Of a stretch of DNA of 64,000 nucleotides, positions 5,656 to 46,986 are shown piece after piece; position 1 is the stretch's first letter; the number at the start of each line of letters is the position of its first letter. This DNA is from an uncultured Thermotogae bacterium. Its GTDB lineage: Bacteria; Bipolaricaulota; Bipolaricaulia; UBA7950; UBA9294. The stretch is taken from the NCBI GenBank assembly GCA_964570515.1, contig CAZMYM010000003.1, forward strand, positions 24,697 through 88,696. The letters are read 5' to 3'. The translations under genes and the position numbers were made by a program. The notes under the pieces are model-generated. The model did no database searches. It was given only the letters and a program-made list of their open reading frames with translations, and was not told the DNA's origin.

Positions 5656-5761
5656 CAGCAGCGCGGGAGGCAGCGCAATCCCTGCTCCGCTAGGAGCAGG
5701 CACGGATCTACGCGATCTCGGGATTCAAGCTCAAACGCAGCTCATCCTAGCGGCAGCACGG
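5613..5761 (+). repeat. Diverged duplicate of the pgsA 3' end (5613-5666 versus 5708-5761)
   Basis: YAVSGLKLKRSSQ* versus YAISGFKLKRSSS*, with several synonymous changes. Hairpin CCTGCTCC-GCTA-GGAGCAGG lies between the copies. Confidence 0.8.
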
Positions 5762-5937
5762 CAGAGAGATCAGGGATACGGCTGACCAGACCCTCAGTTT
5801 AGCAGGGACTCGATGAGCTCGTCCGCGGCACAGCTGCCGTTCACGGAGTATCGGGGATTGAACGCCACGGCAGATCGCTGTAGGGATAGCGAGGGAACTC
5901 GCTGGGCGGCTCCCCCTCCAAGCGTGTCTTCTCTCTA

Positions 5938-6858: not shown

Positions 6859-6883
6859 CGTCCGTCATCCGCCTTCGCTCCGT

Positions 6884-6912
6884 TTGTCGTATCAGCGGAG
6901 CACACGTATAAT
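6884..6912 (+). promoter_or_regulatory. Sigma70-type promoter for nusA
   Basis: TTGTCG-17 nt-TATAAT. Confidence 0.6.
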
Positions 6913-7064
6913 ACGAAGTTCCCGCAAGGACTGGAAGGGGAAGGACTGGGGGGTCGCCGATTGAGGCGGCCGTCGTTGTTTGATGGGCCAGGAAACGGGA
7001 GGGACAGGTAGTCGGTGGATGCCGACCAGGGCCGCAAAGGTCCTACGCCCGACGGATCGCAATC

Positions 7065-10895: not shown

Positions 10896-12407
10896 GTGCT
10901 CTTGAACTACGTTGGCTGGGGAATCAGCGCGGTCGCAGCGATAGCGATCGGCTTCCTCCTTGGCAACATCCCAAGAAAGCGCAAAGAGGACAAGATCCTC
11001 TCGTCCGCTCGCGATGAGGCGGAGCAGATGAAGAAGGAGAAGCTGCTGGAGGCCAGGCAGCAGATCCAGGAGCTCCGCGAGGATCTCGAGAAGAGAACGC
11101 AGCGTCGCGAGGAGGAGGTGGGCCGCGCCGAGGAACGGATTCTCGCTCGCGAGGATCGTCTTCGGGACAAGACGACCCAGCTTGAGAAGACGGAGGACGC
11201 CTTACGCGAAGATGAGGACGCGTTGGTCCGGTTGAAGGCCGAAGGAGAGAAGCTCCTCGAGGAGGGGAAGCACCAGCTGGAGCGGGTGGCGAGTTGGACG
11301 GAGGAGCAGGCTCGCGACCACTTGCTGAAAGTCGTCGAAACGGAGTCGCAACGCTTCTTCTCTCGAAAGATCGAGGAGATTGAGCGACGGGCGAAGGACG
11401 AAGGAGAGCAGCGCGCTGCACACGTCATCGCCACCGCCGTGCAGCGCTATGCGGCGGAATATGTTGAGGGGAACGTCGTCAGTTCCGTTCCGCTTCCGTC
11501 GGAGGAGTTCAAGGGACGGATCATCGGCCGCGAAGGACGCAACATCAAGACCTTCGAAGCACTGACCGGAGTCGAGCTTCTCGTCGATGACACCCCGGAG
11601 ATGGTCGTCCTCTCCTGCTTCCACCCACTGCGGAGGGAAGTCGCGCGAATGGCCCTCACGCGGTTGATCGAAGACGGGCGGATCCACCCAGCGCAGATTG
11701 AGGAGAAGGTGCAGCGGGCGAAGGCGCATCTCTCCGAGCGGGTCAAGGAAGAAGGTCGGAAGGCAGCATTCGACCTCGGGATCGAGGTCCATCCTGAGCT
11801 CGCGATGCTCCTCGGGCGTCTGCGCTATCGGACGAGCTACGGGCAGAATCAGTTGACGCACTCACTGGAAGTGAGCACGATCGCCAAGATTCTGGCCGAC
11901 GAGATCGGTATCGACGCCACCAAGGCGAAGAGGGCGGGCCTGTTGCACGACATCGGGAAGGCCGTCGATCACGAGGTCGATGGGCCGCACGCGCTGATCA
12001 GCGCCGACATGGCGAGGCGGTACGGGGAGTCAAAGGAGATCGTTCATGCGATCGCCGCTCACCATGAGGATGTCGAGCTGACCACGCCCTTGGACATCCT
12101 GATCCAGGCGGCGGACACGCTGTCGGCCGCGCGTCCAGGTGCACGCCAAGAGACCTACGAGCGATACGTCCAGCGCCTTCATGACTTGGAGGAGTTGTGC
12201 CGGTCGTTCCCGGCGGTGCACGAAGCGTACGCGCTTCAGGCGGGACGCGAGGTCCGGATCATGGTTTATCCGGATCGCGCGGCGGACGACGTTGCGGCGA
12301 AGCTCGCCTACGATATCGCTCGAGCGATTGAGGAGGAACTGAGCTATCCAGGCGAGATCAAGGTGAACGTCATCCGGCAAACGCAGTTCACCGAGAGCGC
12401 AAAGTAG
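10896..12407 (+). CDS. rny: Ribonuclease Y
   Basis: N-terminal TM, coiled coil, KH (KGRIIGREGRNI), HD (LLHDIGKA), YALQAGREVR. Confidence 0.96.
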   Translation: MLLNYVGWGISAVAAIAIGFLLGNIPRKRKEDKILSSARDEAEQMKKEKLLEARQQIQELREDLEKRTQRREEEVGRAEERILAREDRLRDKTTQLEKTEDALREDEDALVRLKAEGEKLLEEGKHQLERVASWTEEQARDHLLKVVETESQRFFSRKIEEIERRAKDEGEQRAAHVIATAVQRYAAEYVEGNVVSSVPLPSEEFKGRIIGREGRNIKTFEALTGVELLVDDTPEMVVLSCFHPLRREVARMALTRLIEDGRIHPAQIEEKVQRAKAHLSERVKEEGRKAAFDLGIEVHPELAMLLGRLRYRTSYGQNQLTHSLEVSTIAKILADEIGIDATKAKRAGLLHDIGKAVDHEVDGPHALISADMARRYGESKEIVHAIAAHHEDVELTTPLDILIQAADTLSAARPGARQETYERYVQRLHDLEELCRSFPAVHEAYALQAGREVRIMVYPDRAADDVAAKLAYDIARAIEEELSYPGEIKVNVIRQTQFTESAK

Positions 12408-31387: not shown

Positions 31388-32650
31388 ATGATGGCGATGA
31401 CGTTCGCGCAGAAGATCCTCGCGAAGAAAGCTGGACTGGAGACGGTTGACGTCGGTCAGATCGTCGAGATCGAGCCGGATGTTTGCCTGTCGCACGACAA
31501 CACGGCCGCGATCGCCAAGATCTTTGCCAAGATCGGCGTCGAGCGGGTGGAGGATCCGGACAAGTTCGTCATCGTGCTCGATCACACCGTCCCCGCGTCG
31601 CAGGAGAAGTATGCGATCGGACACAAGGAGATCCGAGAGTTCGTCGCCTTCCACGGGATCGAGCGCTTCTACGATGTCGGCGTCGGAATCTGCCACCAGG
31701 TCCTGCCGGAGAAGGGGTTCGCGCTCCCCGGGCGACTGATCCTCGGCTCGGACTCGCACACCACGACCTACGGCGCGTTCGGCGCGTTTGCCGCCGGGAT
31801 CGGGCGCTCGGAGATGGCCGTGCTCTACGCGACGTCGAAGATCTGGCTCAAGACGCCGGCGAGCTTCAGAATCGTCGTCCACGGGACGCTGGCCGATCCG
31901 GTGACGGCGAAGGATCTGATCCTTCACATCATCGGGTCAATCGGCGCCGACGGCGCGCTCTACAAGTCGGTCGAGTACGCCGGCGAGGCCGTCGACGCGA
32001 TGAGTCTCGCCTCGCGGATGGTCCTGTCGAACATGGCGATCGAGATGGGCGCCAAGAACGGCTACTGCACGCCCGATGACAAGGTCTACCGATTCCTCGA
32101 GTCGCGGGCCGAGACGCAGTACACGCCCGTCTTCGCCGATGCCGACGCGGAGTACGAGCGGGTGCTCGAGTTCGACGCCACGTCGCTCCAGCCGCAGGTC
32201 GCCAAACCGCACACCGTCGATAATGTGTCGCCGGTCGGCGACGTCGCCGGCACGCCGATTCACCAAGGCCTCCTCGGCACGTGCACCAACGGTCGGATCG
32301 AAGACTTGCGCTTGGCCGCTAAGATCCTCGCGGGTCGGACGATCGCCAAGGGCGTTCGGCTCCTCGTCCTGCCCGCGTCGCAGGAGATTCTGATCGAGGC
32401 GCTCCGCGAGGGCCTGATCGACACGTTCGTCAAGGCCGGCGCGCTGCTGCTCAACCCCGGCTGCGGCCCGTGCCTCGGAGCGCATCAGGGCGTCATGGCG
32501 CCGGGTGAGACGTGTATCTCGACCGCCAACCGGAACTTCAAGGGACGAATGGGATCGGCGGAGGCGGAGATCTACCTCGCGTCGCCGGCGACCGTCGCCG
32601 CGTCGGTTGTAACCGGCGTGATCACCGATCCGCGCGAGTTCTTCAAGTAG
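31388..32650 (+). CDS. leuC: Aconitase-family hydratase large subunit (LeuC/homoaconitase type)
   Basis: GSDSHT, GTCTNGR and PGCGPCLG (three Fe-S cysteines), STANRNFKGRMG. Substrate uncertain. Confidence 0.88.
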   Translation: MMAMTFAQKILAKKAGLETVDVGQIVEIEPDVCLSHDNTAAIAKIFAKIGVERVEDPDKFVIVLDHTVPASQEKYAIGHKEIREFVAFHGIERFYDVGVGICHQVLPEKGFALPGRLILGSDSHTTTYGAFGAFAAGIGRSEMAVLYATSKIWLKTPASFRIVVHGTLADPVTAKDLILHIIGSIGADGALYKSVEYAGEAVDAMSLASRMVLSNMAIEMGAKNGYCTPDDKVYRFLESRAETQYTPVFADADAEYERVLEFDATSLQPQVAKPHTVDNVSPVGDVAGTPIHQGLLGTCTNGRIEDLRLAAKILAGRTIAKGVRLLVLPASQEILIEALREGLIDTFVKAGALLLNPGCGPCLGAHQGVMAPGETCISTANRNFKGRMGSAEAEIYLASPATVAASVVTGVITDPREFFK

Positions 32651-32659
32651 AGAAGCAGC

Positions 32660-32845
32660 CTCGCGCAGAGACGCAGAGGCGCGGAGAAGGCAAGAACGAG
32701 GCATGAGGGTCGCGGAGGGAAACGAAGAGAGACGGCAAAGCAAGGTGCTAGAGGTCCGTGGCGTTCCGTCTTCTCACCTTGAGGTCTTGCAGAGAGTGGT
32801 TTCCCGATTCTGGCTTCCTTGGCGTTCTCTGCGCCTCTGCGCGAG
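32660..32845. repeat. Single REP-doublet-like element between leuC and leuD
   Basis: CTCGCGCAGAGACGCAGAGGCGCGGAGAAGG at 32660 and an inverted copy CCTTGGCGTTCTCTGCGCCTCTGCGCGAG at 32817-32845. Confidence 0.85.
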
Positions 32846-32917
32846 GAAAGGTGTGGGTGTTGGAGTGTGCTTCTCCTCTGGCCTTTGGGATAGCCAGGTT
32901 CTAGTGAAGGAGTCTCG

Positions 32918-33406
32918 ATGAACAAGGGAAAGGTCTGGAAGTACGGCGACGACGTCAACACCGACGTCATCTTCCCGGGCAAGTACACCTACCAGCCGAT
33001 GGAGCCGGCCGAGATGGCGCAGCACGCGATGGAGGACCTCGACCCCGAATTCGCGAAGAGCGTGAAGAAGGGTGACATCATCGTCGCTGGCAAGAACTTC
33101 GGCTGCGGTTCGTCGCGTGAACAGGCGGCAACCTGCCTCAAGGCGGCCGGCGTCGCTGCGATCATCGCGCCTTCCTTCTCGAGGATCTTCTTCCGTAACG
33201 CGATCAACAGCGGCCTGCCGGTGATCGAGCTGGCCGAAGGGACGGACGCGATCGAGCAAGGCGACGAGATCGGCATCGACTTCGCCGCCGGCGTCGTCGA
33301 GCACGCCGGGAAGACCTACTCCTTCCCGCCGCTCCCGCCCGAGGTCCTCGCGATCCTCGAGGACGGCGGCCTGATCCCGCATGTGGTGAAGGTGCTGAGC
33401 CGGTGA
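32918..33406 (+). CDS. leuD: Aconitase-family hydratase small subunit (LeuD type)
   Basis: YGDDVNTDVIFPGKYTY, AGKNFGCGSSREQA, SFSRIFFRNAINSG. Confidence 0.88.
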   Translation: MNKGKVWKYGDDVNTDVIFPGKYTYQPMEPAEMAQHAMEDLDPEFAKSVKKGDIIVAGKNFGCGSSREQAATCLKAAGVAAIIAPSFSRIFFRNAINSGLPVIELAEGTDAIEQGDEIGIDFAAGVVEHAGKTYSFPPLPPEVLAILEDGGLIPHVVKVLSR

Positions 33407-33879
33407 TCGAATTCGAGCCGATCGGCGTCATCCACACGCCGTTCTCGAAACCTGAAGGCATGCCGATTCAGCCGGCCGGCGCGGTCGGCGTGAAGGGTAA
33501 AGTCGAGGTCTTCGAGGCGTACCGCGACGGTCTGGCCGACCTCGACGGGTTTTCGCACGTAATCCTTCTCTATCACCTGCACTTGAGTGAGGGGCACAAG
33601 CTGCGTGTCGTGCCGTTCATGGACACGGTGCCGCGTGGCGTCTTCTCGACGCGTGCCCCCAGGCGTCCGAATCCGATCGGCCTCTCGGTCGTACAGCTCG
33701 ATCGAATCGAGGACGGTGTGCTGTACGTGCAGAACGTCGACATGGTCGACGGCACGCCGCTGCTCGACATCAAGCCGTACATCCCGGAATTCGACCACCA
33801 GCCCGACATCCGTACCGGCTGGCTCGAGAAGGCCCGCAAGAACTTGTCCAACCGCCGATCGGACGATCGATTCGCATGA
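33403..33879 (+). CDS. trmO: TrmO/TsaA family tRNA methyltransferase
   Basis: PIGVIHTPF, GLADLDGFSHVILLYHLH, GVFSTRAPRRPNPIGLSVV, DGTPLLDIKPY. Confidence 0.9.
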   Translation: MIEFEPIGVIHTPFSKPEGMPIQPAGAVGVKGKVEVFEAYRDGLADLDGFSHVILLYHLHLSEGHKLRVVPFMDTVPRGVFSTRAPRRPNPIGLSVVQLDRIEDGVLYVQNVDMVDGTPLLDIKPYIPEFDHQPDIRTGWLEKARKNLSNRRSDDRFA

Positions 33880-33943
33880 GGCCCTCGCGATTCTCGAAGA
33901 CGGCGGCCTGATCCCGCATGTCCAGAAGGTGCTGGCTGGATAG
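33878..33943 (+). pseudogene. Orphan diverged copy of the leuD 3' end
   Basis: EALAILEDGGLIPHVQKVLAG* versus the leuD end EVLAILEDGGLIPHVVKVLSR* (33341-33406); both are 66 nt. Confidence 0.85.
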
Positions 33944-33952
33944 GACGCGGCC

Positions 33953-34069
33953 ATGAGTCACGAGCGGTTCGATGTCCAGATCACCAAGGGCGACGAGGTC
34001 CAGTACCTCCTCCAACGCGTCACCGGCAACTTCAAGCGCGGCAACGAACGACCCGTGGCAGGCTCATGA
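33953..34069 (+). CDS. Short ORF or gene fragment (38 aa)
   Basis: MSHERFDVQITKGDEVQYLLQRVTGNFKRGNERPVAGS* with host-like codon use; function unknown. Confidence 0.3.
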   Translation: MSHERFDVQITKGDEVQYLLQRVTGNFKRGNERPVAGS

Positions 34070-34264
34070 CCGGGTGCAGCGATTCCGAACCGCTTTGCCC
34101 GAATTCGGAGTTTCGCATTCTCACAGCCATGATTGGTTCCCTGTAAGCGGCGGGATCTCGCGCAGATTCAACATTGAATGTTCGATCTGCAAGCGCAAGA
34201 ACCGCTCGATTCACCACCCGAAGAAGTCCTGCGCCTCACAGGAACTCTTCTAGAGAACAGCCGT

Positions 34265-34790
34265 CTCGCGCCAAGACGCAGAGGCGCAGAGAAGGGCAAG
34301 AACGATGCGAGTGGCGGGAATGGGGTGGGTGGAATTTTCCACCCTTGCAGAGCATCCCCTTCCGTACGAACTGCAGTAGATCTGTTCCCTCTGCGTCTCA
34401 GCGCCTCTGCGGGAGAAAAGGGGTTCGGGCATTCCTTGAAAGGACAAGAGTCGACTCGCGCAGAGACGCGGAGGCGCAGAGAAGGGCAAAAACCGGAGAG
34501 ACGACAAGAATGAGTTGGGAAGCGCTCTCCTCAGCTCGCTGTTTCCGTGTGAGCTGTAGTGAAGTGGTCCCCCTCTGCGTCCCTGCGACTCTGCGGGAGA
34601 GAAGGTTCTGAGGTTCGAGGGCTTCCTTGAAGCAACAAGACCAGACTCGCGCAGAGCCGCAGAGGCGCAGAGAAGGGCTAAGGACGGTGCGAGCGACAAG
34701 AACGGATCGGCTACTACGCCAGTGGAACTCGCTTCTTCTCTATGGAACGCTTTAGTCGCCCCCCTCGGCGCCCCTGCGACTCTGCGCGAG
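34265..34790. repeat. Tandem array of three REP-doublet units, 190-191 bp period
   Basis: Forward copies at 34265, 34455 and 34646; inverted copies at 34387, 34571 and 34762. Interiors are unrelated (about 76-83 bp); linkers are related (TTCCTTGAA..ACAAGA). Confidence 0.9.
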
Positions 34791-35076
34791 AAAGGGGTCT
34801 GACGGTTCAGCTCCTGGTCGTCTCTGAGTACGCGCCCTGCAATGGTGAAAGCGAAGGAACCTCGCGATCCACCGCGCACGGGATTCCTCTGTCCGCGGGG
34901 AGTCATGCTTGATCAGACATGCTTCATGAACTTGCCCCACCAGCTTCATGGCAGTAGGATGGCGCGAGGATACCAATGTCAATATATGGGAATAGGAGAG
35001 GCGTCAGGGCTGATGAGGTCCCGGAAGACGCGAAAGGGGAAGTCGCGATGCTAGTGTGCAGGGCTGCACACTAATC

Positions 35077-35874
35077 ATGGTTCGAGCCAAGAATATGAGC
35101 ACATCACGCAACATCCTGAACCTGATGCGGGAGCATGAAAAGGCGTTCTCGAAGCGTTTCGCGTTCTACCTCGACGCCGCCGATGAGTTCATTTCGCTTC
35201 AGGGCCAGATGGGACTTGGAGTCCCTGCGATGGAACAACTCCCCGAGCACGACCAAAGCATTATCAAGACATATGTCTTTTTGGCGGAATCCAGCAACAC
35301 AACATGGGCTGCCGCATTACGCCTTCTGTCATCCGCGTTCGTTGCCTCCGCACACGGATTGGTCCGTGTTCTCTACGAGACGGCAGCGTTGCTGCATTAC
35401 GGCAATTCGTCTCCGCCTGACACACGAACTGAGCTGCACCGTTCGATGTTCCAATCGGGTCTGCCGGAGCAGGAACACCGAAAAGCGGAGTGGCGCTTCA
35501 CCCGAAAAGCCATGGCTTTGCTTGAGAAACAACATCCCGACCTTGTGTCAGTTCACCAAGAACTGAACAACTTCGGCGGCCACATCTCCCGCGCAAGAGT
35601 CGTGTTGAGTAACATCACAGCCATGGGGAACTCGTCGGCTTCGCGGGTATTCTTCCCAAACTGGTCAGACAATCGCTATCTCGCCGGAATGGATATGCTC
35701 CTGCACGTAAGCACGTTGATCCTCGAAGAGTACGCTGTGTTGCACGAAGCGTACGGCGGTGTCACGCCCGAGGTGCGCGCCAAGGTCAAAGCACTTGCAG
35801 GGACTTACTCGACAACTGTGCGGCCACGACTTCAAGCAATGATCAAGACATCGGCGGCTCGAACAAAACCCTGA
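35077..35874 (+). CDS. Hypothetical helical protein (possibly DUF5677-like); probable gene cassette
   Basis: Long ORF with more A/T-ending codons than its neighbours; LVRVLYE motif; stop codon lies inside an attC-like site. Start uncertain (35077 or 35095). Confidence 0.7.
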   Translation: MVRAKNMSTSRNILNLMREHEKAFSKRFAFYLDAADEFISLQGQMGLGVPAMEQLPEHDQSIIKTYVFLAESSNTTWAAALRLLSSAFVASAHGLVRVLYETAALLHYGNSSPPDTRTELHRSMFQSGLPEQEHRKAEWRFTRKAMALLEKQHPDLVSVHQELNNFGGHISRARVVLSNITAMGNSSASRVFFPNWSDNRYLAGMDMLLHVSTLILEEYAVLHEAYGGVTPEVRAKVKALAGTYSTTVRPRLQAMIKTSAARTKP

Positions 35875-35925
35875 ACCGTACCGTTGACAGCCGCGCAGAC
35901 GCGTCTGCCAGCGTCCGGTTAGGGC
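35869..35925 (+). mobile_element. Short attC-like site 1 (57 bp)
   Basis: CCCTGAAC...GTTAGGGC ends; imperfect hairpin CGTTGACAG / CTGCCAGCG with a central CGCG-CAGA-CGCG stem. Confidence 0.5.
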
Positions 35926-35949
35926 GGGCGTCCTCGGGCAGCTTGCGCC

Positions 35950-36034
35950 CTCGAACTAGCGGAACCAGCGGACAGTCGCCCACGCGAGCAAGCTCGCGCG
36001 TCCGCCTGCCACTGATCCGCAGCCACGTTAGACC
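35950..36034 (+). mobile_element. attC site 2
   Basis: R'' CTCGAAC, L'' GCGGAACCAGCGG pairing with L' CCACTGATCCGC (one extra base), central ACGCGAGC-AA-GCTCGCGCGT stem, R' GTTAGAC. Confidence 0.72.
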
Positions 36035-36079
36035 GCGCGCATCTCTGGGACAGGCAAGTTACAGGAGAAGGAGGCAAGC

Positions 36080-37390
36080 GTGCCCAAGGTGAATCCGTTC
36101 AAGCCCTTCTCGCCAGTTCCTCACGGGCTGTTCGTTGGCCGCATCCGAGAGATTGACTGTCTAGAGGCACATCTAGCCCAGACGAAGGCGGGACACCCTT
36201 CCAGCTTCATGGTCACTGGAGAGCGGGGCATTGGAAAGTCCTCCCTGCTTCTGTTCGTGAGGTTTGTCGCTCAGGGTGGAATGGACGTCGACGGAGGTAA
36301 GCTCAACTACCTCGTCATCGATACTGATATCGATGCCAGGACGACTCAGTTCGGTCTTGTCCGCAAGATTGAATTCGGTCTCCGTTCGGCCCTGGCCAAG
36401 TCGGAGCCGGCTCGAGAGTTTCTGAAGAAGACGTGGGAGTTCCTCCAGCGGATCCAGGTCCAGGGCACCGGGTTCAAGTCGGACGCAGGCCAGAAGTCCG
36501 ATGAACTCATGCTTGAGGAGTTCTCCTATTCGCTAGCACAGACCTGCGATAGAGTCTGCGGAGTCACGGAAGACGGTGCCGACTTCGGATCAACACACGA
36601 CGGAGTCCTCATCCTGATCGATGAAGCAGACAACGCGTCGAAGGACCTCCAATTGGGCTCCTTCCTGAAGCTCCTGAATGAGCGACTCCAGAGAAGGGGG
36701 TGTGACCGCGTGATGTTCGGACTTGCCGGCCTCAGCGGTCTGAGAGATGTTCTCAGGACGAGTCACCCGTCGTCGCTGCGGATGTTCGAGGAACTCCCAC
36801 TTGATCGCCTGTCCAATACGGAAGTCGGGCGCGTCGTCGAACTATGTCTGAAGCGCGCGAACGAGACAGCCGATCCACAGATTGAGATTACCTCGGAGGC
36901 AGAAGAGATACTCGTGCTGCTAGCAGAAGGGTATCCCCATTTCATCCAGCAGTTCGGATACTCGGCGTTCGCTGTAGACTCTGACGATATCATCGACGGG
37001 GATGATGTGCGAGGTGGAGCACTCGGCAAGGGCGGCGCACTCGAGCGGATCGGCGACCGCTACTACCGTGACGATTTCTACAACAGAATTCAGAAGGACA
37101 ACTATCGTCAAGTGCTTCGGATCATGGCAGACAGCCTTGATGACTGGGTTACCAAGCAGGCTATACGCGACAGGTTCAAGGGGAAGCAGAGTGCCCTGGA
37201 CAACGCGATATACGCTCTCCGTGATCGCCACATAATCCAGTCCAAGGAGGGAGTCCGGGGGGTCTACCGGCTTCGGCACAAGGGGTTCGCTCTCTGGATC
37301 AAGTACTACACGACCGACCCTGATGATGTGCAGCAGACCTTGAATGGAGACGGCGATGGGGTGGCCGAGGGCGGGACGGATACCGAGTGA
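36080..37390 (+). CDS. Stand-alone AAA/STAND-like ATPase carried as a gene cassette
   Basis: NPF..FVGR N-terminus, Walker A GERGIGKS, Walker B LILIDEAD, GYPHFIQ, probable C-terminal winged helix. Confidence 0.85.
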   Translation: MPKVNPFKPFSPVPHGLFVGRIREIDCLEAHLAQTKAGHPSSFMVTGERGIGKSSLLLFVRFVAQGGMDVDGGKLNYLVIDTDIDARTTQFGLVRKIEFGLRSALAKSEPAREFLKKTWEFLQRIQVQGTGFKSDAGQKSDELMLEEFSYSLAQTCDRVCGVTEDGADFGSTHDGVLILIDEADNASKDLQLGSFLKLLNERLQRRGCDRVMFGLAGLSGLRDVLRTSHPSSLRMFEELPLDRLSNTEVGRVVELCLKRANETADPQIEITSEAEEILVLLAEGYPHFIQQFGYSAFAVDSDDIIDGDDVRGGALGKGGALERIGDRYYRDDFYNRIQKDNYRQVLRIMADSLDDWVTKQAIRDRFKGKQSALDNAIYALRDRHIIQSKEGVRGVYRLRHKGFALWIKYYTTDPDDVQQTLNGDGDGVAEGGTDTE

Positions 37391-37398
37391 TGGCACGC

Positions 37399-37501
37399 GG
37401 TCTAACTAGCGTATGCACCCGGCGAGCTTGGCTGTCACGCCGGCCGCATTCGCACCCGTCGCGCTAGCCTGGCGCTCGCGGGTGATACGCGTTCATTAGG
37501 C
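37399..37501 (+). mobile_element. attC site 3
   Basis: R'' GGTCTAAC is the exact complement of GTTAGACC at the cassette start (36027). L'' CGTAT[G]CACCCG pairs with L' CGGGTGATACG leaving an extrahelical G. R' is ATTAGGC. Confidence 0.82.
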
Positions 37502-37527
37502 CCATCAAGCGAGGCTGGGGAGGCGTG

Positions 37528-37593
37528 ATGAACGGAGCGGTTTGGGGCTTCATCGGCACGCTCGCGGGAGCCGTCGTCGCGCGAGGCTAGGGT
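37528..37593 (+). pseudogene. Truncated ORF immediately after attC 3
   Basis: GGAGG RBS, then MMNGAVWGFIGTLAGAVVARG*; looks like a membrane-protein N-terminus with an early stop. Confidence 0.35.
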
Positions 37594-37666
37594 CAGGTCC
37601 TGCAATGCAGCACTAGGTTCTAGCAGATCGCTGCTCGCGTGATTAAAGCGGGAAGAGGGCAGAGAA

Positions 37667-37765
37667 GTGAGGCTCGACGAGCAGGACCACAAGACCCTGG
37701 TGCTCTGGGTCGCTGACTGCGCTGATCCTGGGAACTCGCGGAAAGACCTGCGAGTTCCCAGGATC
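37667..37765 (+). pseudogene. N-terminal fragment resembling Imm5-like/putative immunity proteins, interrupted by a 16-bp perfect inverted repeat
   Basis: MRLDEQDHKTLVLWVADCA, then GATCCTGGGAACTCGC-10 nt-GCGAGTTCCCAGGATC (37724-37765). Confidence 0.45.
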
Positions 37766-37939
37766 CGTAATGAGACTTGTCCAGGTCTGAGAAGCAGCAT
37801 CCACTGCGCATGCTGTCGCCACGGAACGCGACTGGCAAGTCCGAAGCCTTCCCGAGCATCTTCGATCCTTCGCGTGACCGTCCGGTGATTCGTTCTACTC
37901 CAGCCCCCGCTGTGTCACGCAAGTCCGTGTTTCGCTTGG

Positions 37940-37980
37940 TTGACGCGCCGGGAGTCTCGTTGTATCTTCAATGTGTATAC
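37940..37980 (+). promoter_or_regulatory. mazEF promoter with overlapping imperfect palindrome (likely autoregulatory operator)
   Basis: TTGACG-17 nt-TATCTT; GTATCTTCAATGTGTATAC overlaps the -10. Confidence 0.6.
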
Positions 37981-37992
37981 GGGAGGTGTCGC

Positions 37993-38235
37993 ATGAAAGT
38001 TCAAGTTCGGAAATGGGGCAACAGCCTGGCAGTGAGAATCCCGAAGACGTTTGCCGCAGATCTTGGAGTCGCTCAGGACTCGTCGGTGGAGCTGAGCGTC
38101 GAAGACGGCTGCCTACTCATTCGACCATCGGTTGCCCCGAGGTACGAGCTTGCGGCACTGCTGGCTTCCGTGACTCCCAAGAACGTGCACACCGAAATCG
38201 ACCTTGGCTCGGCGATGGGGAAAGAGACGTGGTAG
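37993..38235 (+). CDS. mazE: AbrB/MazE antitoxin
   Basis: MKVQVRKWGNSLAVRIPK...YELAALLASVT...GKETW. Confidence 0.92.
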   Translation: MKVQVRKWGNSLAVRIPKTFAADLGVAQDSSVELSVEDGCLLIRPSVAPRYELAALLASVTPKNVHTEIDLGSAMGKETW

Positions 38236-38570
38236 CGCAGGATGCCGCGCCGGACCGAGGTGACATCGTCTGGATCAGCCTCAACCCCCAGGCAGGTCAT
38301 GAACAGGCAGGCAGGCGGCCGGTCTTGATCCTTTCTCCCGAGGCGTACAACCGGAAGGTTGGGCTCGCCCTCTGTTGTCCGATCACCGGCCAGCGAAAGG
38401 GCTATCCGTTTGAGGTCGATCTGCCAGCCGAAGGGGCAGTGTCTGGGGTGATCCTGGCCGACCAAGTGAAGTGCCTGGACTGGCGAGCGCGACAAGCCGA
38501 CATCCATGGATCAGCTCCGATCGATGTTGTGAACGAGGCTCTAGGCAAACTGGCGTCGCTCCTGCAATAG
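38229..38570 (+). CDS. mazF: MazF/PemK endoribonuclease toxin
   Basis: PDRGDIVWISLNPQAGHEQAGRRPVLILSP..YN, CPIT, YPFEV, LADQVKCLDW. Confidence 0.93.
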   Translation: MVAQDAAPDRGDIVWISLNPQAGHEQAGRRPVLILSPEAYNRKVGLALCCPITGQRKGYPFEVDLPAEGAVSGVILADQVKCLDWRARQADIHGSAPIDVVNEALGKLASLLQ

Positions 38571-38888
38571 GGATGAGAACGGGAACTCGAGTGACGGCCT
38601 CGGGTTCCGTGGAGAATCGGGATTGACACCCGATTCCCTCGCTGGATCCGAATTGACACGTGCGCCGGGTGCGCTCAACGAGGCGCCCCGCTGCCGTGCG
38701 CCAGACGGCTACGCTGCCACCGCAGCCAGCGACGCCGCCACGGAACGAGTAGCAGGTTCGGCATCTTGCGAACCACCTTCGGTCCGTGGAGTGATCGCCA
38801 CTCGGAAGAAGCCTTATCATGTCGCAGAAATCCGGCACTTGGCTGCATCGCGAGAGCGCGGACCGGAAGTAAGGATGAGGAGGCAGAG

Positions 38889-39365
38889 ATGAGGGATTCG
38901 CTGCGCACGGGCGTTTCGTTCGGGCTCACGTCGGCCGTAATTACCACGCTCGGACTGATGGTCGGCCTGCACTCCGGCACGGGATCGAAGCTGGTCGTTC
39001 TGGGAGGCGTGCTCACGATCGCCATCGCCGATGCCTTCTCCGATGCGCTTGGCATTCACGTTTCGGAGGAATCGGAGAACGTTCACACGACGCGGCAAAT
39101 CTGGAGCGCCACCATCGCGACGTTCTTGGCGAAATTCGTCTTCGCGTTGACCTTCATCGTGCCGGTCCTTCTTCTGTCGCTCTCGACGGCGGTTGTGGTC
39201 AGTGTCGTGTGGGGATTGTCGATTCTTGCGATTCTGAGCTACTTCATGGCTCGGACCCAGGGCGAGCGTCCGTGGAAGATCATCGGAGAGCATGTCCTGA
39301 TTGCCGTTGTAGTCATTGCCATCACCTACTGGGTCGGGCAGTGGGTGTCTACACTCGCAGCATGA
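38889..39365 (+). CDS. VIT1/CCC1-like membrane protein
   Basis: SFGLTSAVITTLGL...IAIADAFSDALGIHVSEES; about five TM segments. Confidence 0.78.
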   Translation: MRDSLRTGVSFGLTSAVITTLGLMVGLHSGTGSKLVVLGGVLTIAIADAFSDALGIHVSEESENVHTTRQIWSATIATFLAKFVFALTFIVPVLLLSLSTAVVVSVVWGLSILAILSYFMARTQGERPWKIIGEHVLIAVVVIAITYWVGQWVSTLAA

Positions 39366-39402
39366 AGCCGAAGCGATGGACAGGAATGAAGGAGGAAGCA
39401 TC

Positions 39403-39840
39403 ATGAAAGTACCGCAGGCGATCAGCGTTGACGAGGTTCGGAGGGTGTGCGAAGAACTGGGGATACAGGACTGGGCTCTGCTTGCGGAGGCCAGCGTTTC
39501 GATCGCAGAGGCGGAGAGGATTCTTGCCGTAGTGAACGTGAGCGGGATGCCGATCAAGGCCGAGACTTTTCGTCAAGGGCTCGAAGTCGAGCTCGAACAC
39601 GGCACTCGGTTTGCCGACGCCAATGTCACGAACAACCATCCACTCCTGACCGGAATGATCGTACTGGCGCATCTGAAGGAATCGCTCGACTACTACCTCC
39701 GGCTCGATGTGGCCGAGATCGAGGGGGACGTCCTGAAGGCCATCATCGCCAAGGACCCGGAGAGACTGCGAACCAAGTACAACAAACTCACCGCCGCGCG
39801 ATGCGCGCTGGCCGAAGCCGAGGCCGAAGCGCTTCGATGA
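39403..39840 (+). CDS. DUF5661-like protein
   Basis: FRQGLEVELEHG..NVTNN..LLTGMIVLAHLKE..DYY.RL. Confidence 0.72.
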   Translation: MKVPQAISVDEVRRVCEELGIQDWALLAEASVSIAEAERILAVVNVSGMPIKAETFRQGLEVELEHGTRFADANVTNNHPLLTGMIVLAHLKESLDYYLRLDVAEIEGDVLKAIIAKDPERLRTKYNKLTAARCALAEAEAEALR

Positions 39841-39910
39841 TGTGACATCCGCGCGATGCGGATTTCGAACTCGCGGGGTCCATGGCGCCAAATACGGCAA
39901 GGAGAACGCG

Positions 39911-40285
39911 ATGCGCGAGTACGAGATCGAGCTCGAGATCTTCGAGGGCAAGGGCGGGCGGAGCACGGACGTGACGTACCCGAACTTCGTGAAGGAAGGG
40001 ATCTGCGTCTGGATGTTCGACGACGAAGAAGAGCCTGAGAAGAAGGTCGGCGACACCTTCCAATATCCCGATGACGTGGGCAAGCTCTGTCCCTGGCTCG
40101 TCGACAGCCTGACGGGCTTCCTCCGCGCGCTCGAGAACGGCGGGACGCTTCCGTGGCGGTATCGCGGCACGCCGTACGAGAAGGCGATCGATCCCGACGG
40201 CGTGACAACAGAGTTCGTCCGATGCCCCGATCCGACCGCGTGCGGAATCGTCATGAAGATCATGAGGTCCGCGCTGCCGGAGTGA
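39911..40285 (+). CDS. TIGR04076-like cysteine-containing small protein
   Basis: GDTF.YP...LCPW...RCPDP...IVMKI pattern. Confidence 0.6.
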   Translation: MREYEIELEIFEGKGGRSTDVTYPNFVKEGICVWMFDDEEEPEKKVGDTFQYPDDVGKLCPWLVDSLTGFLRALENGGTLPWRYRGTPYEKAIDPDGVTTEFVRCPDPTACGIVMKIMRSALPE

Positions 40286-40393
40286 CAGCACTTGGCGTCT
40301 CGCATGGGCAGGCGGCTCTCGTGTTGGGAAGCGAGCTGCCTATTCCATCGCCTATCGAGAGAGGACCGCGCGCGGCTGCCTCGCGGCCCGAGG

Positions 40394-40801
40394 TCAGCGG
40401 CGTATCGGCTTCACCGCGCACGAAGTGCAGGGCTCTGCGGTCCAGGCGGTGAGGAGCCCGTCCTCGAAGCGCATGATCTCCTCGCCGTAGCGAGACGAGC
40501 GATAGGTCCACTCCTCGTACGTCGAGTCGTCGCCGCTCGATCTCTTGACGCTGCTCGGCTCGCCCAGACTGGCGAGGATCATCTCTTGCGTCATGCCGAC
40601 CCAGATCTCTTCTCGGACGACCCGCTCGCAGTCGAGGCGAGCCCAGTTCGGATGGCCTTCCTGGCACGCATCGACTTGACGTTCGAATGCAGCGTTCAGC
40701 GCGCCCCAGGGGGACGGGGCATCCGGGTCGAGTCCCGTGAGTGCCAAGATGCCCAGCAGGGCGATCGCGAGAACGATCAACAGCGGTTTCAGACTGGCCA
40801 T
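40394..40801 (-). CDS. Exported hypothetical protein with a SmpA/OmlA-like segment and terminal CxxC
   Basis: N-terminal hydrophobic helix, IWVGMTQEMILASLGEP..EEWTY..F.DG, ends PCTSCAVKPIRR. Confidence 0.65.
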   Translation of the reverse strand: MASLKPLLIVLAIALLGILALTGLDPDAPSPWGALNAAFERQVDACQEGHPNWARLDCERVVREEIWVGMTQEMILASLGEPSSVKRSSGDDSTYEEWTYRSSRYGEEIMRFEDGLLTAWTAEPCTSCAVKPIRR

Positions 40802-40986
40802 CGTCGTGACACTCCCTTCCGTGCGGTCGCTGATTCTACCAGCCTCTGTGGTGACCGCCAGCCGGGAAACGGAGGCTGGCGGCTTCCAAGGCAAAGACGT
40901 CATACGAATTCGCTTCGTGCTGCCTCCCGGGATGAGCGTTGCGCCTCCGAAATCCGTATCATCAGATGCTAAAAGGAGTCAATGGA

Positions 40987-41196
40987 ATGGAACAGAAGCC
41001 GAGCGGCCAAAGGCCCAAGGCGGTCATTGCACACTACCTGTGGCTCCTCTCACTCAGCTGCGGAATCGCCATCGGTGCCGGTATTGGTGCAGCCACCGAT
41101 AGCATCGGTGCAGGGATAGCCATCGGCACGGGGGCCGGCGTCGCGATTGGACTGCTGCTCTACCGACGGTTCAAGGACAGCCCCGACACGAGTTAG
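40987..41196 (+). CDS. Small glycine-zipper membrane protein
   Basis: GIAIGAGIGAATDSIGAGIAIGTGAGVAIG; RBS AAGGAG upstream. Confidence 0.7.
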   Translation: MEQKPSGQRPKAVIAHYLWLLSLSCGIAIGAGIGAATDSIGAGIAIGTGAGVAIGLLLYRRFKDSPDTS

Positions 41197-41483
41197 GATC
41201 CCGGCCCAACGGTCGCGGGCGGCAGCCTCTACTGCTGAATCGCGTGAGGAGCACGTCTCGGCACCTCGGTTTCCTGAGAGGTCCGCCGACGCAAGCTCGC
41301 AAGGGGCTCAACGCAAAGGGATTGCGGGCCGCATGGCCGCATGGCCGCCCGGTAAGATCGCGTCCGTCGACGTCCAAACTCTCGAGCGCAGTGTTCACCG
41401 TGCTCGGCATTGTTTCCCTTTCAGTTGATTGATGGCTTCTCCCGACCCGCCCACATGGTTTTCGTGCGCGATGGAGGTACCCA

Positions 41484-43057: not shown

Positions 43058-44311
43058 CTACGTGCTCGGTCCGACGGTCGTGACGTGGAGCTTCTCCAGA
43101 CAGAGGAACCGCTCGATGACCGTTGCGATGTCGGCCGCGCTGACGGCGTCGAGCTTCAGAAGGACCTCTTCGGGCGAGAGGATCTCACGACCTGCGACCG
43201 CGGCCGTGCCCAGGCGCATCGCCCGATTGGCGTTCGCCTCCATCCCGAGGATGAACAGACCGCGCAGCCGCGCCTTGGCGAGGGCGATCTCGTCTCCGTC
43301 CGGCGGCTCTTCGCGCAGGCGCGAGATCTCGCCTTCGAGAAGACCCTGTACTTCGGGTGTGTGATTCGGCGCGGTGCCGGCGTAGAACATCCACAGTCCG
43401 GCGTCGGTGTAACGCAGGAAAGTGGAGCCGACGGAGTACGCGAGGCCGCGATCTTCGCGGATCGCTCGGAACAGACGCGAACTCGTACCGTCTCCGAGAA
43501 TCACGTTGAGCAATTCGAGCGCGTATCGATCGGGATCGTCTGCCGGAGGGCCGGGAAGCGCGATGTAGATGTGCGACTGGCCCGCCGCGCACTCGTTGTG
43601 GTGTCGTCCGTCGCGGAAGCGCGGCGGGATCCTGGCAACTTCCGTTTCTCTTGGTGTGTCCGAGAGTCCGAAACGGCGTGCGACATCGTCGATGAAGGAA
43701 TGGACCTCGATCGCTCCCGACGCCGCGAGCACCATCTCTTCCGGGTGATAGTGACGATCGTGGTGAGCAGCGACCTCATCGTGGCTGGCGGCTTCGATCG
43801 CCTCTCGGGTTCCCAGGACGGAGCGAGAGAGCGCATGGCCGTCATCCCACACGGCGGCGATGAAGCGGTCGAAAGCGGTCGCCTCAGGGTCGTCTTCGTG
43901 CCCGCGGATCTCATCGAGGACGACCGTTCGTTCGAGATTGACCTTCTCTGGAGCGAATGCGGGGTTGCGGACGAGGTCGACCACCAGGTCGAGCGCGGTG
44001 TCGATGCCATAGGCGGGGACGTCGGCATAGAAGACGGTCGACTCTCGCCCGGTCGCGGCGTTCAGATTCCCCCCGACCGAATCGATTTCGCGCGAGATCT
44101 GGGCCGCGTCCCGAGTTGTCGTCCCCTTGAAGGCGAGATGCTCGATGAAGTGGGCGAGTCCGGGGCTCGAATCCGGGTCGTCGCGGCTGCCGACGTTGAT
44201 CCACGTGCCGACACTGACAGAGCGTGACTGCGGATCCTCTTCGGCGAAGATCCGCAGTCCGTTATCGATCCGTGTCGTGTATGCCCGCTCGTAGAGGCGT
44301 TCGGCTACCAA
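43058..44311 (-). CDS. M16 family zinc peptidase
   Basis: GSRDD..GLAHFIEHLAFKG (HxxEH), RLFRAIREDRGLAYSV. Confidence 0.92.
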   Translation of the reverse strand: MVAERLYERAYTTRIDNGLRIFAEEDPQSRSVSVGTWINVGSRDDPDSSPGLAHFIEHLAFKGTTTRDAAQISREIDSVGGNLNAATGRESTVFYADVPAYGIDTALDLVVDLVRNPAFAPEKVNLERTVVLDEIRGHEDDPEATAFDRFIAAVWDDGHALSRSVLGTREAIEAASHDEVAAHHDRHYHPEEMVLAASGAIEVHSFIDDVARRFGLSDTPRETEVARIPPRFRDGRHHNECAAGQSHIYIALPGPPADDPDRYALELLNVILGDGTSSRLFRAIREDRGLAYSVGSTFLRYTDAGLWMFYAGTAPNHTPEVQGLLEGEISRLREEPPDGDEIALAKARLRGLFILGMEANANRAMRLGTAAVAGREILSPEEVLLKLDAVSAADIATVIERFLCLEKLHVTTVGPST

Positions 44312-46986
44312 CGATCCTCGAGTTCAGGTTGCGCCGGGTCGTCCTCTTGCTGTTCGTCAGCCGTCGGCTCTTCGGCATCCACCGACGCTGGTTGGTCGTC
44401 CGGCTCCGGCGGGCTGTCCTCCTCCGGCTGACTCTCCTGCTCCGGCTGACTCTCCTTCTCCGGCTGACTCTCCTGCTCCGGTTGACTCTCCTGCTCGTGT
44501 TCCTCGAAATCCAGCTTGGCTTCCGGGACTTCCACGTCCTCTGTCTTGGGCTTCTGCCCCTCGCCTTCCGGCAGGATCCTGCGAAGCTTGTAGCGTCCTC
44601 GTTCGTCGACGTTCATCACTTCGACGGTGACGGAGTCCCCTGTGCGAACGACGTCGGTTACCCGCCGGACGTACTCATCCGAGAGGGCCGAGATGTGGAT
44701 CAACCCGGTGACATCGGGAGCGAGATCGACGAACGCGCCGTACTCGGTCGTGTTGCTCACCGTTCCCTCGATGATGTCGCCTGCCTTGATCTGCGACGCG
44801 GGGGCTGCAGATCTCGCAGGTTCTCGCCGCCGGCCTGACGAACGATCGCTTCGTCCTCTTCGCTCGTCTCGATCTCCACCTTCGGGTTCACCCGGCTCGA
44901 TTCGCTTGAGGTCGGGCCGCCCCATCTTGTCTTCGCCGATGACCTTGATCGTGATCTCGTCGCCGACCGAGACGTGGTCCGTGACCTTGTCGACGAACCC
45001 GGAGGCGAGGTTGGAGACGTGAACAAGACCCTCGCCGCCACCCTTCAACTCGACGAACGCGCCAAAGTCGACGATTCGCGTCACCTTCGTGGTGAAGACG
45101 GTGCCTACTTCGAGTTCCGCAGTCAGATCCTCGATGATCTGGCGTGCAGCGGCGGCCGATGTGTCGTCCGGACTGGCGATCTTCACCGTGCCGTCGTCGG
45201 AAATGTCGATCTCCGCGCCGGTGTTCTCGACGATCTGACGGATCGTCTTTCCTCCGGGGCCGATGACGAGGCCGATCTTGTCGACCGGGATCGTGATCGT
45301 AATCAGCCTCGGCGCGTACGTGGAGAGCTCCGTTCTCGGCGCACGGATCGCTTTCTCCATCTCGGAGAGAATCGTAAGCCTTGCCTGTCGCGCTTGGGTG
45401 AGTGCCTCCTGCAGCGTGGCGCTGTCGATCCCGCCGACCTTGACGTCGAGCTGGAATCCCGTGACTCCATCCTTCGTCCCGACGACCTTGAAGTCCATGT
45501 CGCCGTGGTGATCTTCGGCGCCCTGGATGTCCGTGAGGACGACGCGGCGTCCCGTCGCCGGATCTTCGATCATCCCCATCGCGATCCCGGCGACCGCCTT
45601 CTTGATCGTGACGCCGGCGTCCATCATCGCCAGCGACGCGCTGCAGACCGTCGCCATCGAAGAAGAGCCGTTCGACTCCAGGATCTCCGAGACGATACGG
45701 ACGACGTACGGGAAGTCTTCCACGTCGGGCATGACGCTCTGCAAGGAGTTCTCAGCCAGATACCCGTGGCCGATCGATCGTCGGCTCGGGCTGCCGATTC
45801 GGCCGACTTCTCCGACCGAGAACGGCGGGAAGTTGTAGTGAAGCATGAAGCGTTTCCGGCCGTCGAACATCATCTGATCGATGATCTGCTCGGCGTGGCG
45901 TGTGGCTCCAAGGGTGACGATCCCAAGGCTCTGCGTCTCGCCGCGAGTGAACAGGGCCGACCCGTGTGTGCGGGGGAGAACGGAGACGCGGCAGGAGATC
46001 GGCCGAACTTCGTCGGGACGGCGGCCGTCGAGGCGAATCCCTTGCTCCAGCACTTGCTGTCGCATGTACTTCTCAAGGAGCGACTCCACGGCACCCTCGA
46101 CCGCCTTCTTGCCCGAAGCGGCCTCCTCTTCGGGGGTCTCTTCCGGGACGAGACGGGCGACCGCGTGTTTCTTCAGCTCTGCAACGAAGTCATCGCGCCC
46201 GCGCTTTGAGTCGAGCGTGTTCATGGACGGGAACTCACTCCAAACGAGCTCCTTCACGCGGCCGATCAGGTCGTGATCCTCAATCGGGGTTTCGACGACC
46301 GTCTTCTTGATCGAACCCATCCGGTCGACGAACCGTTCCTGCAGAGCGATCAGCTCCCGCACGGCTTGATGGCCGACTTCGATCGCCTCGACGACCTCGT
46401 CTTCGGAGAGTTCGTCCATCATCCCCTCGACCATCGTGACAGCCTCTTTCGTCCCGGCGACGGTGATGTGGACGCAACTCTCCTCGCGCGTCTCCGCATC
46501 CGGATTCACGATGAAGCGCCCGTCCTTTCGCCCGACGCTGACGCCGGCGATCGGCCCTTGGAACGGAGCCCGAGAGATCATCAACGCAGCGGACGCACTC
46601 AGGATCGCAAGCGAACTCGGCGGGCAGTCCGGCTCTGCGGAGAGGACGGTCGCCACGATCTGGACCTCGTCGTTGTAGCCCTTCGGGAAGAGAGGACGAA
46701 TCGGGCGGTCGATCATCCGGCCCGTCAGGACCGCGACGTCGCTCGGTCGCCCCTCGCGCTTGAAAAAGCCTCCCGGGATCTTACCGGCCGCGTAGAATCG
46801 CTCCTCGTAGTCGACGCGAAGCGGGAAGTAGTCGATGTCGCTACGCGGGTCCGCGGTCACAACGGTGACCAGCACGTGGGTGTCGCCGTACGTCGCCAGC
46901 ACGGCGCCGTCTGCTTGTCGGGCGATCTGCCCGGTCTCTAGCGCAAGCTCCTTGCCATTGAACTGGATGCTTTCACGGATGTACAT
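44305..46986 (-). CDS. pnp: Polyribonucleotide nucleotidyltransferase with a second S1 domain and an acidic repeat tail
   Basis: DYFPLRVDYEER..AGKIPGGF, RTHGSALFTRGETQ, ESNGSSSMA, GDMDFKV, KH, two S1 domains. Confidence 0.96.
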   Translation of the reverse strand: MYIRESIQFNGKELALETGQIARQADGAVLATYGDTHVLVTVVTADPRSDIDYFPLRVDYEERFYAAGKIPGGFFKREGRPSDVAVLTGRMIDRPIRPLFPKGYNDEVQIVATVLSAEPDCPPSSLAILSASAALMISRAPFQGPIAGVSVGRKDGRFIVNPDAETREESCVHITVAGTKEAVTMVEGMMDELSEDEVVEAIEVGHQAVRELIALQERFVDRMGSIKKTVVETPIEDHDLIGRVKELVWSEFPSMNTLDSKRGRDDFVAELKKHAVARLVPEETPEEEAASGKKAVEGAVESLLEKYMRQQVLEQGIRLDGRRPDEVRPISCRVSVLPRTHGSALFTRGETQSLGIVTLGATRHAEQIIDQMMFDGRKRFMLHYNFPPFSVGEVGRIGSPSRRSIGHGYLAENSLQSVMPDVEDFPYVVRIVSEILESNGSSSMATVCSASLAMMDAGVTIKKAVAGIAMGMIEDPATGRRVVLTDIQGAEDHHGDMDFKVVGTKDGVTGFQLDVKVGGIDSATLQEALTQARQARLTILSEMEKAIRAPRTELSTYAPRLITITIPVDKIGLVIGPGGKTIRQIVENTGAEIDISDDGTVKIASPDDTSAAAARQIIEDLTAELEVGTVFTTKVTRIVDFGAFVELKGGGEGLVHVSNLASGFVDKVTDHVSVGDEITIKVIGEDKMGRPDLKRIEPGEPEGGDRDERRGRSDRSSGRRREPARSAAPASQIKAGDIIEGTVSNTTEYGAFVDLAPDVTGLIHISALSDEYVRRVTDVVRTGDSVTVEVMNVDERGRYKLRRILPEGEGQKPKTEDVEVPEAKLDFEEHEQESQPEQESQPEKESQPEQESQPEEDSPPEPDDQPASVDAEEPTADEQQEDDPAQPELEDRW
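44404..44493 (-). repeat. 18-bp coding tandem repeat (QESQPE-type, four units plus one degenerate) in the pnp tail
   Basis: CTCCGGCTGACTCTCCTG units at 44422, 44440, 44458 and 44476. Confidence 0.9.

Follow-up and report, generated by a model that had tools for sequence, protein, structure and literature searches.

attC sites of integron cassettes share a common architecture, with an R'' box (RYYYAAC), paired L'' and L' boxes with one or more extrahelical bases and an R' box (GTTRRRY), in a total length of about 57-141 nt. In an integrated cassette the first bases past the G|TT crossover complement the R'' box of the cassette's own attC. A complete integron possesses an intI gene, whose product is a tyrosine recombinase with an IntI-specific additional domain near patch III, and an adjoining attI site at which cassettes enter. 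Sedentary chromosomal integrons with an inactivated integrase are known from single fixed loci, e.g. the Xanthomonas integrons beside ilvD. Both clusters of attC sites without an integron integrase (CALINs) and inactivated chromosomal integrons are familiar elements with a broad taxonomic distribution (PMC4889954; PMC9668308). Here, we describe a small array with two cassettes that carry open reading frames (ORFs), in a 64,000-nt stretch of contig CAZMYM010000003.1 from an uncultured bacterium of the Bipolaricaulota; this whole stretch is called the window, and all positions refer to it. The array is very likely a decayed chromosomal integron, which available tools would operationally call a CALIN. 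The kind of element is already known and ordinary; the host phylum is unusual. The parts of the array are the following:

34836-34949, minus strand: delta-intI, the remaining stub of a gene for an integron-type tyrosine recombinase; its 38 N-terminal codons start with the ATG at 34949, MKLVGQVHEACLIKHDSPRTEESRARWIARFLRFHHCR
34950-35080, plus strand: candidate attI between the stub and cassette 1, with the crossover G35080|T35081
35081-35930, plus strand: cassette 1, starting TTCGAGCC and carrying ORF1
35095-35874, plus strand: ORF1, 259 amino acids, without family, predicted to be all-helical
35858-35938, plus strand: attC A, 81 nt, overlapping the end of ORF1, 19.3 bits with the covariance model R2 (see below); R'' CTCGAAC at 35858-64, spacer AAAAC, L'' CCT(G)AACCG at 35870-78, which includes the ORF1 stop codon; L' CGGTTAGG at 35916-23, spacer GCGGGC, degenerate R' GTCCTCGGG at 35930-38
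35950-36033, plus strand: attC-like site B, 84 nt, without ORF, 7.9 bits with R2, aligned end to end; R'' CTCGAAC at 35950-56, followed by TAGCG and an imperfect hairpin, R' GTTAGAC at 36027-33
36028-37495, plus strand: cassette 2, starting TTAGACC and carrying an AAA+ ATPase
36080-37390, plus strand: ATPase, 436 amino acids, Orc1/Cdc6-like AAA+ with a C-terminal winged helix; Pfam AAA_16
37400-37501, plus strand: attC C, 102 nt, just after the ATPase stop codon, 14.8 bits with R2 in a full-length alignment; R'' GTCTAAC at 37400-06, spacer TAGCG, L'' TAT(G)CACCCG at 37412-21; L' CGGGTGATA at 37479-87, spacer CGCGTTC, R' ATTAGGC at 37495-501, where A replaces the canonical G

In outline the locus resembles the CALINs that Cury et al. 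described in 2016 (PMC4889954): one strand carries two to three attC-type sites at distances below 4 kb, every site follows a promoterless ORF of the same orientation, a functional intI is missing from the vicinity and the cassette genes are of no known function. It differs from CALINs in the N-terminal intI stub that adjoins the array, and in attC scores much weaker than typical, with two degenerate R' boxes. With sedentary chromosomal integrons it shares the position beside an amino-acid biosynthesis gene (here leuCD), the decayed integrase gene and the chromosomally inherited array; however, only two ORF-bearing cassettes are present here, the integrase is down to 38 codons, the host belongs to the Bipolaricaulota and the closest relatives examined have no integron at the locus.

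The boundary rule is followed by both cassettes. In cassette 1, GTTCGAGCC (35080-35088) is complementary to GGCTCGAAC (35856-35864) in 9/9 positions, and in cassette 2, GTTAGACC (36027-36034) is complementary to GGTCTAAC (37399-37406) in 8/8 positions (TTAGACC after G36027 against GGTCTAA(C)). An earlier reading of the window, made from the letters alone (the sequence-only reading), had pointed to the second pair as exact complements and to such complementarity as the hallmark of an integrated circular cassette. The pair is indeed exact, and the hallmark extends to both cassettes of the window and to the positive controls, two comparison loci numbered L029 and L117. When all ...AAC k-mers of the window are compared with equally sized upstream intervals, the real matches included, the chance of a boundary match is 0.14% for cassette 1 and 0.7% for cassette 2, jointly about 1e-5. 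These complements are not scored by the covariance model and are, therefore, evidence independent of the attC matches. When homologous cassettes are compared, changes in the first six bases are matched by changes in R'', with TTCGAG/CTCGAA in the window and TTAAAT/ATTTAA in L117. Downstream, no complement of TTAGGCC was found.

As Rfam has no attC family, covariance models were built from real attC sites; a scan of the window with Rfam itself gave no relevant match. The first model, R1, was built from 16 independent attC sites, taken from eight plasmids with class 1 integron arrays, and has a 7 bp R box and a 9 bp L box with one bulge. On a validation set of 79 genome loci with homologues of the ATPase it returned 19 matches at E <= 1 around these homologues, all of them (19/19) on the strand of the gene. 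In the window R1 matches are weak, with 10.6 bits for 35858-35938 and 9.9 bits for 37400-37501 (E 2.8 and 4.2). The second model, R2, comprises 40 sites, i.e. the R1 training sites and the R1 validation matches, with window sequences excluded. Searched with all filters off in 128 kb of strand, R2 places A first (E 0.014) and C second (E 0.21) among its window matches. Both lie on the plus strand, each at an ORF end and 1.5 kb apart, and the next R2 match in the window has 10.9 bits. In 0.88 Mb of loci outside training, R2 produced one probable false match of at least 17 bits.

The sequence-only reading had seen three attC-like hairpins following ORFs. Three attC-like elements are present: A and C, the top two R2 matches, and B, which has no ORF of its own and scores 7.9 bits. 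R'' boxes and bulged L boxes are present in the array, and R' is canonical in B only (GTTAGAC). In C, TAT(G)CACCCG (37412-37421) pairs with CGGGTGATA (37479-37487) around one bulged base, and the bottom strand folds with z = -2.98, none of 200 shuffles being as stable. L-box pairing with an extrahelical G had been proposed for this site: the pairing is present, but the bulged G belongs to the top strand, so that the recombining bottom strand bears a bulged C. The same bulge arrangement occurs in the attC sites of blaVIM and blaIMP-1. The R' box of B forms the left boundary of cassette 2, and AACTAGCG is common to B and C, with only these two exact copies in the window. In the bottom-strand fold B is a separate hairpin beside A.

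Other interpretations of these hairpins were considered and rejected. B is not taken as the attC of cassette 1, because A surpasses it in R'' complementarity (9/9 versus 7/7) and in score, and is homologous to an attC of another locus (L107). A single composite attC from 35858 to 36033 was dismissed, as two distinct hairpins form in the bottom-strand fold. A, B and C are no intrinsic terminators, since no T-run or terminator-like site occurs behind any of the three, and they do not belong to the family of repeats resembling repetitive extragenic palindromic (REP) elements, which is confined to 32637-32854 and 34240-34802.

ORF1 has no Pfam, NCBIfam or PADLOC family and no significant fold match in the PDB; its predicted model is all-helical with a predicted local distance difference test (pLDDT) score of 82. 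Its family comprises 47 proteins, some of which weakly match DUF5677. In the metagenome loci L107, L108, L110 and L116-118, attCs that score 23-40 bits precede or follow the ORF1 homologues. The homologous attC of L107 (23.4 bits) is canonical, corresponds to attC A in position and sequence, and likewise overlaps the ORF end. It reads ATCGAAT-AAATC-CCTGAACGG...CCCGTTAGGG-GTGGC-GTTAGCC; attC A, aligned to it, reads CTCGAAC-AAAAC-CCTGAACCG...CCGGTTAGGG-CGGGC-GTCCTCG. The motif TTCGAGC has been conserved in L104 and L107, where it precedes the ATG by 5-17 nt; in L104 it is in another reading frame.

The ATPase is confidently predicted (pLDDT 81) to be an AAA+ protein of the Orc1/Cdc6 type, with a lid domain and a winged-helix domain, and its best PDB matches in Foldseek are archaeal ORC2/Cdc6 (E 1.8e-10). 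At least 924 homologues, with identities of up to 72%, are found in Anaerolineae, Acidobacteriota, Verrucomicrobia, Nitrospira, Gammaproteobacteria, the candidate phyla radiation (CPR) and others. In L029 (Verrucomicrobia) an attC ending with GTTAGGT lies 20 nt before the homologue and an attC starting with ACCTAAC lies behind it. An attC is located directly behind the homologue in L038, L045 and L076, and directly in front of it in L007, L039 and L041. In L076 (Aminicenantes) the homologue follows a truncated intI with the IntI-specific segment ALDRKYPNA...WQWVFP. In this chromosomal locus (5303-7289) the integrase fragment is an ORF of 170 amino acids that corresponds to the C-terminal half of an integron integrase and shares 55% identity with IntI1 residues 179-330. 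It is oriented like the ATPase homologue, whose end is overlapped by an attC, with two more attCs downstream. Homologues of both window ORFs are, thus, flanked by strong attC sites in other phyla, where the sequence-only reading had advised to look for the same cassettes.

Many ATPase homologues are found outside cassette arrays: after polA in L006, in a serine-recombinase element in L007 and in a SIR2/methylase island in L011. These varied contexts indicate that the gene travels by other routes too. No attC supported by the model was detected at the closest homologues, L011 and L012, nor at L006 and L009. In L009 (Terriglobales), direct repeats of about 75 nt (GGCGGGTGGGCCACTTTAACG...ATAACTGGGGGTGCG; 9821-9895 and 11374-11448) bracket the homologue, as they do in L010; having no attC-model match, the L009 repeats point to another packaging route for the ATPase gene. 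Phage-defence systems are among the known products of integron cassettes. For the ATPase, whose PADLOC and NCBIfam matches are limited to the P-loop, a role in defence is a hypothesis only.

When the window is searched with IntI1 by tblastn, a single weak match is obtained, which covers IntI1 residues 13-51 and lies at 34952-34836 of the minus strand. Its position and orientation had been foretold by the integron model before the search, which adds weight to the match. In BLASTP the stub is 37% identical to IntI1 residues 14-51 (58% positives, 38 amino acids, ungapped). It matches Pfam PF13495, the N-terminal SAM-like domain of phage-type integrases, with E 2.4e-5 at profile positions 3-36 of 85, and its only matches among the 18,950 NCBIfam models are the integron-integrase models NF011946 and TIGR02249. 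The stub is divergent, pointing away from the cassettes, and past codon 38 its frame continues into sequence that stems from the cluster of REP-like repeats. By tblastn with E up to 10, neither a catalytic nor an IntI-specific domain is found anywhere in the 64 kb. The sequence-only reading had stated that the window contains no intI, which is correct for an intact gene but overlooks the stub. It had also left open a remnant or a satellite array; given the stub in canonical position and orientation, the array is better understood as the remnant of a complete integron and not as a satellite.

Compared with a class 1 integron (intI1-attI1-cassettes), the locus has the divergent intI, a distance of 131 nt from its start codon to the first G|TT crossover (136 nt between intI1 and attI1 in L017), the R'/R'' rule and the box layout of R'', 5 nt, L'' with bulge, and after the interior L', spacer and R'. 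Unlike in class 1 integrons, the right spacers have 6-9 nt and the bottom-strand bulge is C in A and C instead of the commoner G; there is no similarity to the attI sequence, and a Pc-like sigma-70 promoter was not found. The segment 34950-35080 may be inferred to have served as attI, since its location and its G|TT fit, as does the spacing of 131 nt.

The last 31 nt before the crossover (35050-35080) include a small hairpin (TAGTGTGCA/TGCACACTA). They are identical to sequence upstream of ORF1 homologues in 22/31 positions in L117 (3946-3976) and in 20/31 positions in L104 (about 2545-2575), while homology with L107 starts only at TTCGAGC. No intI occurs upstream of the ORF1 homologues in L104 and L117. 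The 31 nt could be an attI common to the members of one integron lineage in which ORF1 is a frozen first cassette; alternatively, they could belong to ORF1 as its leader or a regulatory element. A simple N-terminal extension of ORF1 is argued against by the different reading frame across these nucleotides in L104. A motif of 18 nt before the crossover has seven matches in viral contigs, which were judged to be at chance level.

Left of the stub lies a repeat family:

32637-32854 and 34240-34802, alternating orientation: REP-like palindromic repeats with the core CGCAGAGGCGCAGAGAAGG, spaced by about 190 nt

It consists of six copies in two clusters, with none elsewhere in the window, and the second cluster (34240-34802) abuts the truncated intI. 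In contigs from salt-lake metagenomes the REP-like stretch has 17-25× word depth against about 3× around it, and many loose ends; the repeat is, therefore, a high-copy element.

Several observations weigh against a decayed integron. The scores of attC A and C are low in comparison with those of true sites (17-85 bits), B is barely above noise with its 7.9 bits, and GTT is preserved in only one of the three cleavage triplets, the R' boxes of A (GTCCTCG) and C (ATTAGGC) being non-canonical. Genome-wide E-values would be about 50-fold higher, which would render C, and perhaps A, borderline or non-significant; moreover, the region was picked beforehand for the same features that the covariance model scores. 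The stub scores 25.1 bits with PF13495, below the gathering cut-off of 27, and its 38 residues belong to a SAM-like domain common to other tyrosine recombinases, the IntI-specific C-terminal domain being absent. Conservation of the 31 nt in L117 and L104 without an intI is not simply reconciled with a cassette boundary at 35080. Finally, neither excision variants nor empty sites nor boundary joints are seen in the salt-lake metagenome contigs at about 3× depth, the only joints being those in the REP cluster.

One rival explanation is a chance resemblance, i.e. an ordinary islet with defence-like genes and with GC-rich intergenic palindromes that mimic attC. The R1 E-values in the window are only 2.8 and 4.2, the genome is GC-rich with other palindromic repeats nearby, and the many ATPase homologues outside cassette arrays (L006, L007, L011) fit such an islet. 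The probability of this explanation is, nevertheless, very slim, considering the joint chance of about 1e-5 for two boundary complements, the two best R2 matches of the window at consecutive ORF ends on one strand, the homology of attC A with a canonical attC behind an ORF1 homologue, the co-variation of R' and R'' between homologous cassettes and the presence of an integrase stub. Another explanation regards the array as a small CALIN whose cassettes were inserted at a genomic attG site by an integrase acting in trans, either encoded elsewhere or brought by a transient element, without any resident integron and with an unrelated stub. attG-inserted cassettes, which form single attC sites lacking an integron integrase (SALINs) and small CALINs, resemble the locus in the small chromosomal array and in outer junctions that rebuild GTT (Loot et al., 10.1101/2022.09.11.507474): joined, the outer flanks of the array read ...CATGG|TTAGGCC..., in which GTT fits the attG consensus 5'-GWT-3', and CALINs with two cassettes are the commonest class (1362/2961; 10.1101/2022.09.11.507474). 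The lack of an intact intI within the 64 kb agrees with this as well. However, insertion at attG turns the placement of the stub (131 nt, divergent, NCBIfam matches to integron integrases only) into a coincidence, and the 31 nt conserved before the crossover in other ORF1 loci suggest a specific site and not a random GWT; stub and conserved sequence together point to a resident attI. We consider attG insertion decidedly unlikely.

That the array is a decayed integron agrees with the further results on its cassettes. The sequence-only reading had recognised an integron-type cassette cluster, to be abandoned if the attC model gave no significant hits and the ORFs were syntenic core genes in relatives; instead, four independent lines support it: attC-model matches are present, if weak, at the expected places and on the expected strand, the boundaries are complementary, homologues are attC-flanked elsewhere, and the ORFs are absent from the locus in relatives. 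An integron integrase gene would once have been located on the minus strand left of 34949, facing an attI with the crossover G35080|TT. Its product would have captured circular cassettes by attI × attC recombination, which would have left three units directed away from intI: ORF1 with attC A, the ORF-less B, and the ATPase with its attC C. The first six to eight bases of each cassette, paired with its own R'', would be the scar of circularisation. Later the integrase gene may have been lost except for 38 N-terminal codons beside the REP-like cluster, and R' would have drifted in two of the three sites (GTT to GTC and ATT). The degenerate R' boxes make it probable that the array is frozen; most likely it is now inherited as ordinary chromosomal DNA.

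Alternatively, the array might still be functional, with cassettes that an integron integrase from another part of the genome, or from an incoming mobile element, could excise and move. Cassettes of CALINs can be mobilised in trans (PMC9668308), and the R'' boxes, the bulged L boxes and the R' of B (GTTAGAC) are intact. Continued mobility is unlikely, though, with the cleavage triplets GTC in the R' of A and ATT in the R' of C, and with one arrangement in ten contigs from several metagenomes, where boundary joints were not seen (about 3× depth).

The array is situated right of leuC (31388-32650), leuD (32918-33406) and a trmO-like gene (33403-33879), in this order. The G+C content of the stretch is about 62-63% and drops to 57% (0.574) at 34-38 kb. 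Among named relatives of LeuC the best matches are Candidatus Bipolaricaulota. Mis-binning is no concern, as the contig of the array also bears the core genes leuCD, pnp and rpsO. The locus is present in salt-lake metagenomes, and all contigs bearing it, from several metagenomes (10/10), keep the identical arrangement. Three relatives with 87-92% LeuC identity (L014, L015 and L016) were compared at the locus, and each of them (3/3) has a different set of small genes after leuD. In L016 the interval between leuD and coaD is bounded by coaD-M16 peptidase-pnp-rpsO. Neither trmO nor ORF1, the ATPase or mazEF occurs at the locus in L014-L016; ORF1 and the ATPase are, hence, not syntenic core genes.

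Comparison with L014-L016 shows the interval after leuD (33407-41400) to be a hotspot where related Bipolaricaulota differ in gene content, and the ORF starting with MREYEIE... (from 39842) is the only one of this interval shared with L016. A 62-nt direct repeat, 87% identical, is found at 33336-33397 and 33873-33934. The 3' end of leuD is duplicated directly after the trmO-like gene (…ILEDGGLIPHV(V/Q)KVL…), by which trmO appears to be inserted between the new and the old leuD ends. On the other side, directly 3' of the array, lies a toxin-antitoxin pair:

37993-38570: mazE/mazF (PemK) toxin-antitoxin pair

It possesses its own promoter-like site, TTGACG-17-TATCTT, at 37940-37968, and is followed by a VIT1-like gene and a DUF5661 gene. 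No attC sites were found behind mazEF, VIT1 or DUF5661. The non-coding sequence between attC C and mazE contains a perfect 16 bp inverted repeat with a 10-nt spacer at 37724-37765 (GATCCTGGGAACTCGC/GCGAGTTCCCAGGATC; fold z = -6.0). Further right, a minus-strand ORF of 893 amino acids (44305-46986) contains near its 3' end, at 44381-44496, a unit of 18 nt (TCCGGCTGACTCTCCTGC-like) in five tandem copies. By synteny with L016 this ORF is probably pnp, and the tandem units would encode an acidic repeat extension.

According to the sequence-only reading, integrons are not known to have been characterised in the host lineage, and the literature searched likewise contains no relevant report linking Bipolaricaulota or Acetothermia with integrons. 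The decayed array, thus, places integron activity, at least in the past, in the Bipolaricaulota. It is also a worked example of the origin of a CALIN from a complete integron, with an N-terminal stub as the only trace of intI. The pseudogene screen of Cury et al. used C-terminal profiles only (intI_Cterm and PF00589; PMC4889954), and an N-terminal stub like this one would, therefore, be missed. With C-terminal screens blind to such stubs, the published proportion of 95% of CALINs without a nearby intI pseudogene may be an overestimate. Furthermore, a very widespread Orc1/Cdc6-like ATPase is flagged as a recurrent integron cassette and as a candidate for an anti-phage or other accessory function.

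A further idea, tentative and on balance rather doubtful, is that halophilic or sediment candidate phyla such as the Bipolaricaulota contain an undescribed integron lineage, which has its own attI and in which the ORF1 family is a fixture, either as the first cassette or as part of the platform. In the three ORF1 loci that share the 31 nt, the proteins are 43-69% identical, and the six bases after the crossover co-vary with the attC of each cassette. If such a lineage exists, it would, together with the stub, be the first evidence for active integrons in the Bipolaricaulota, and it would imply an exchange of cassettes between the Bipolaricaulota and Verrucomicrobia, Aminicenantes and Gammaproteobacteria.

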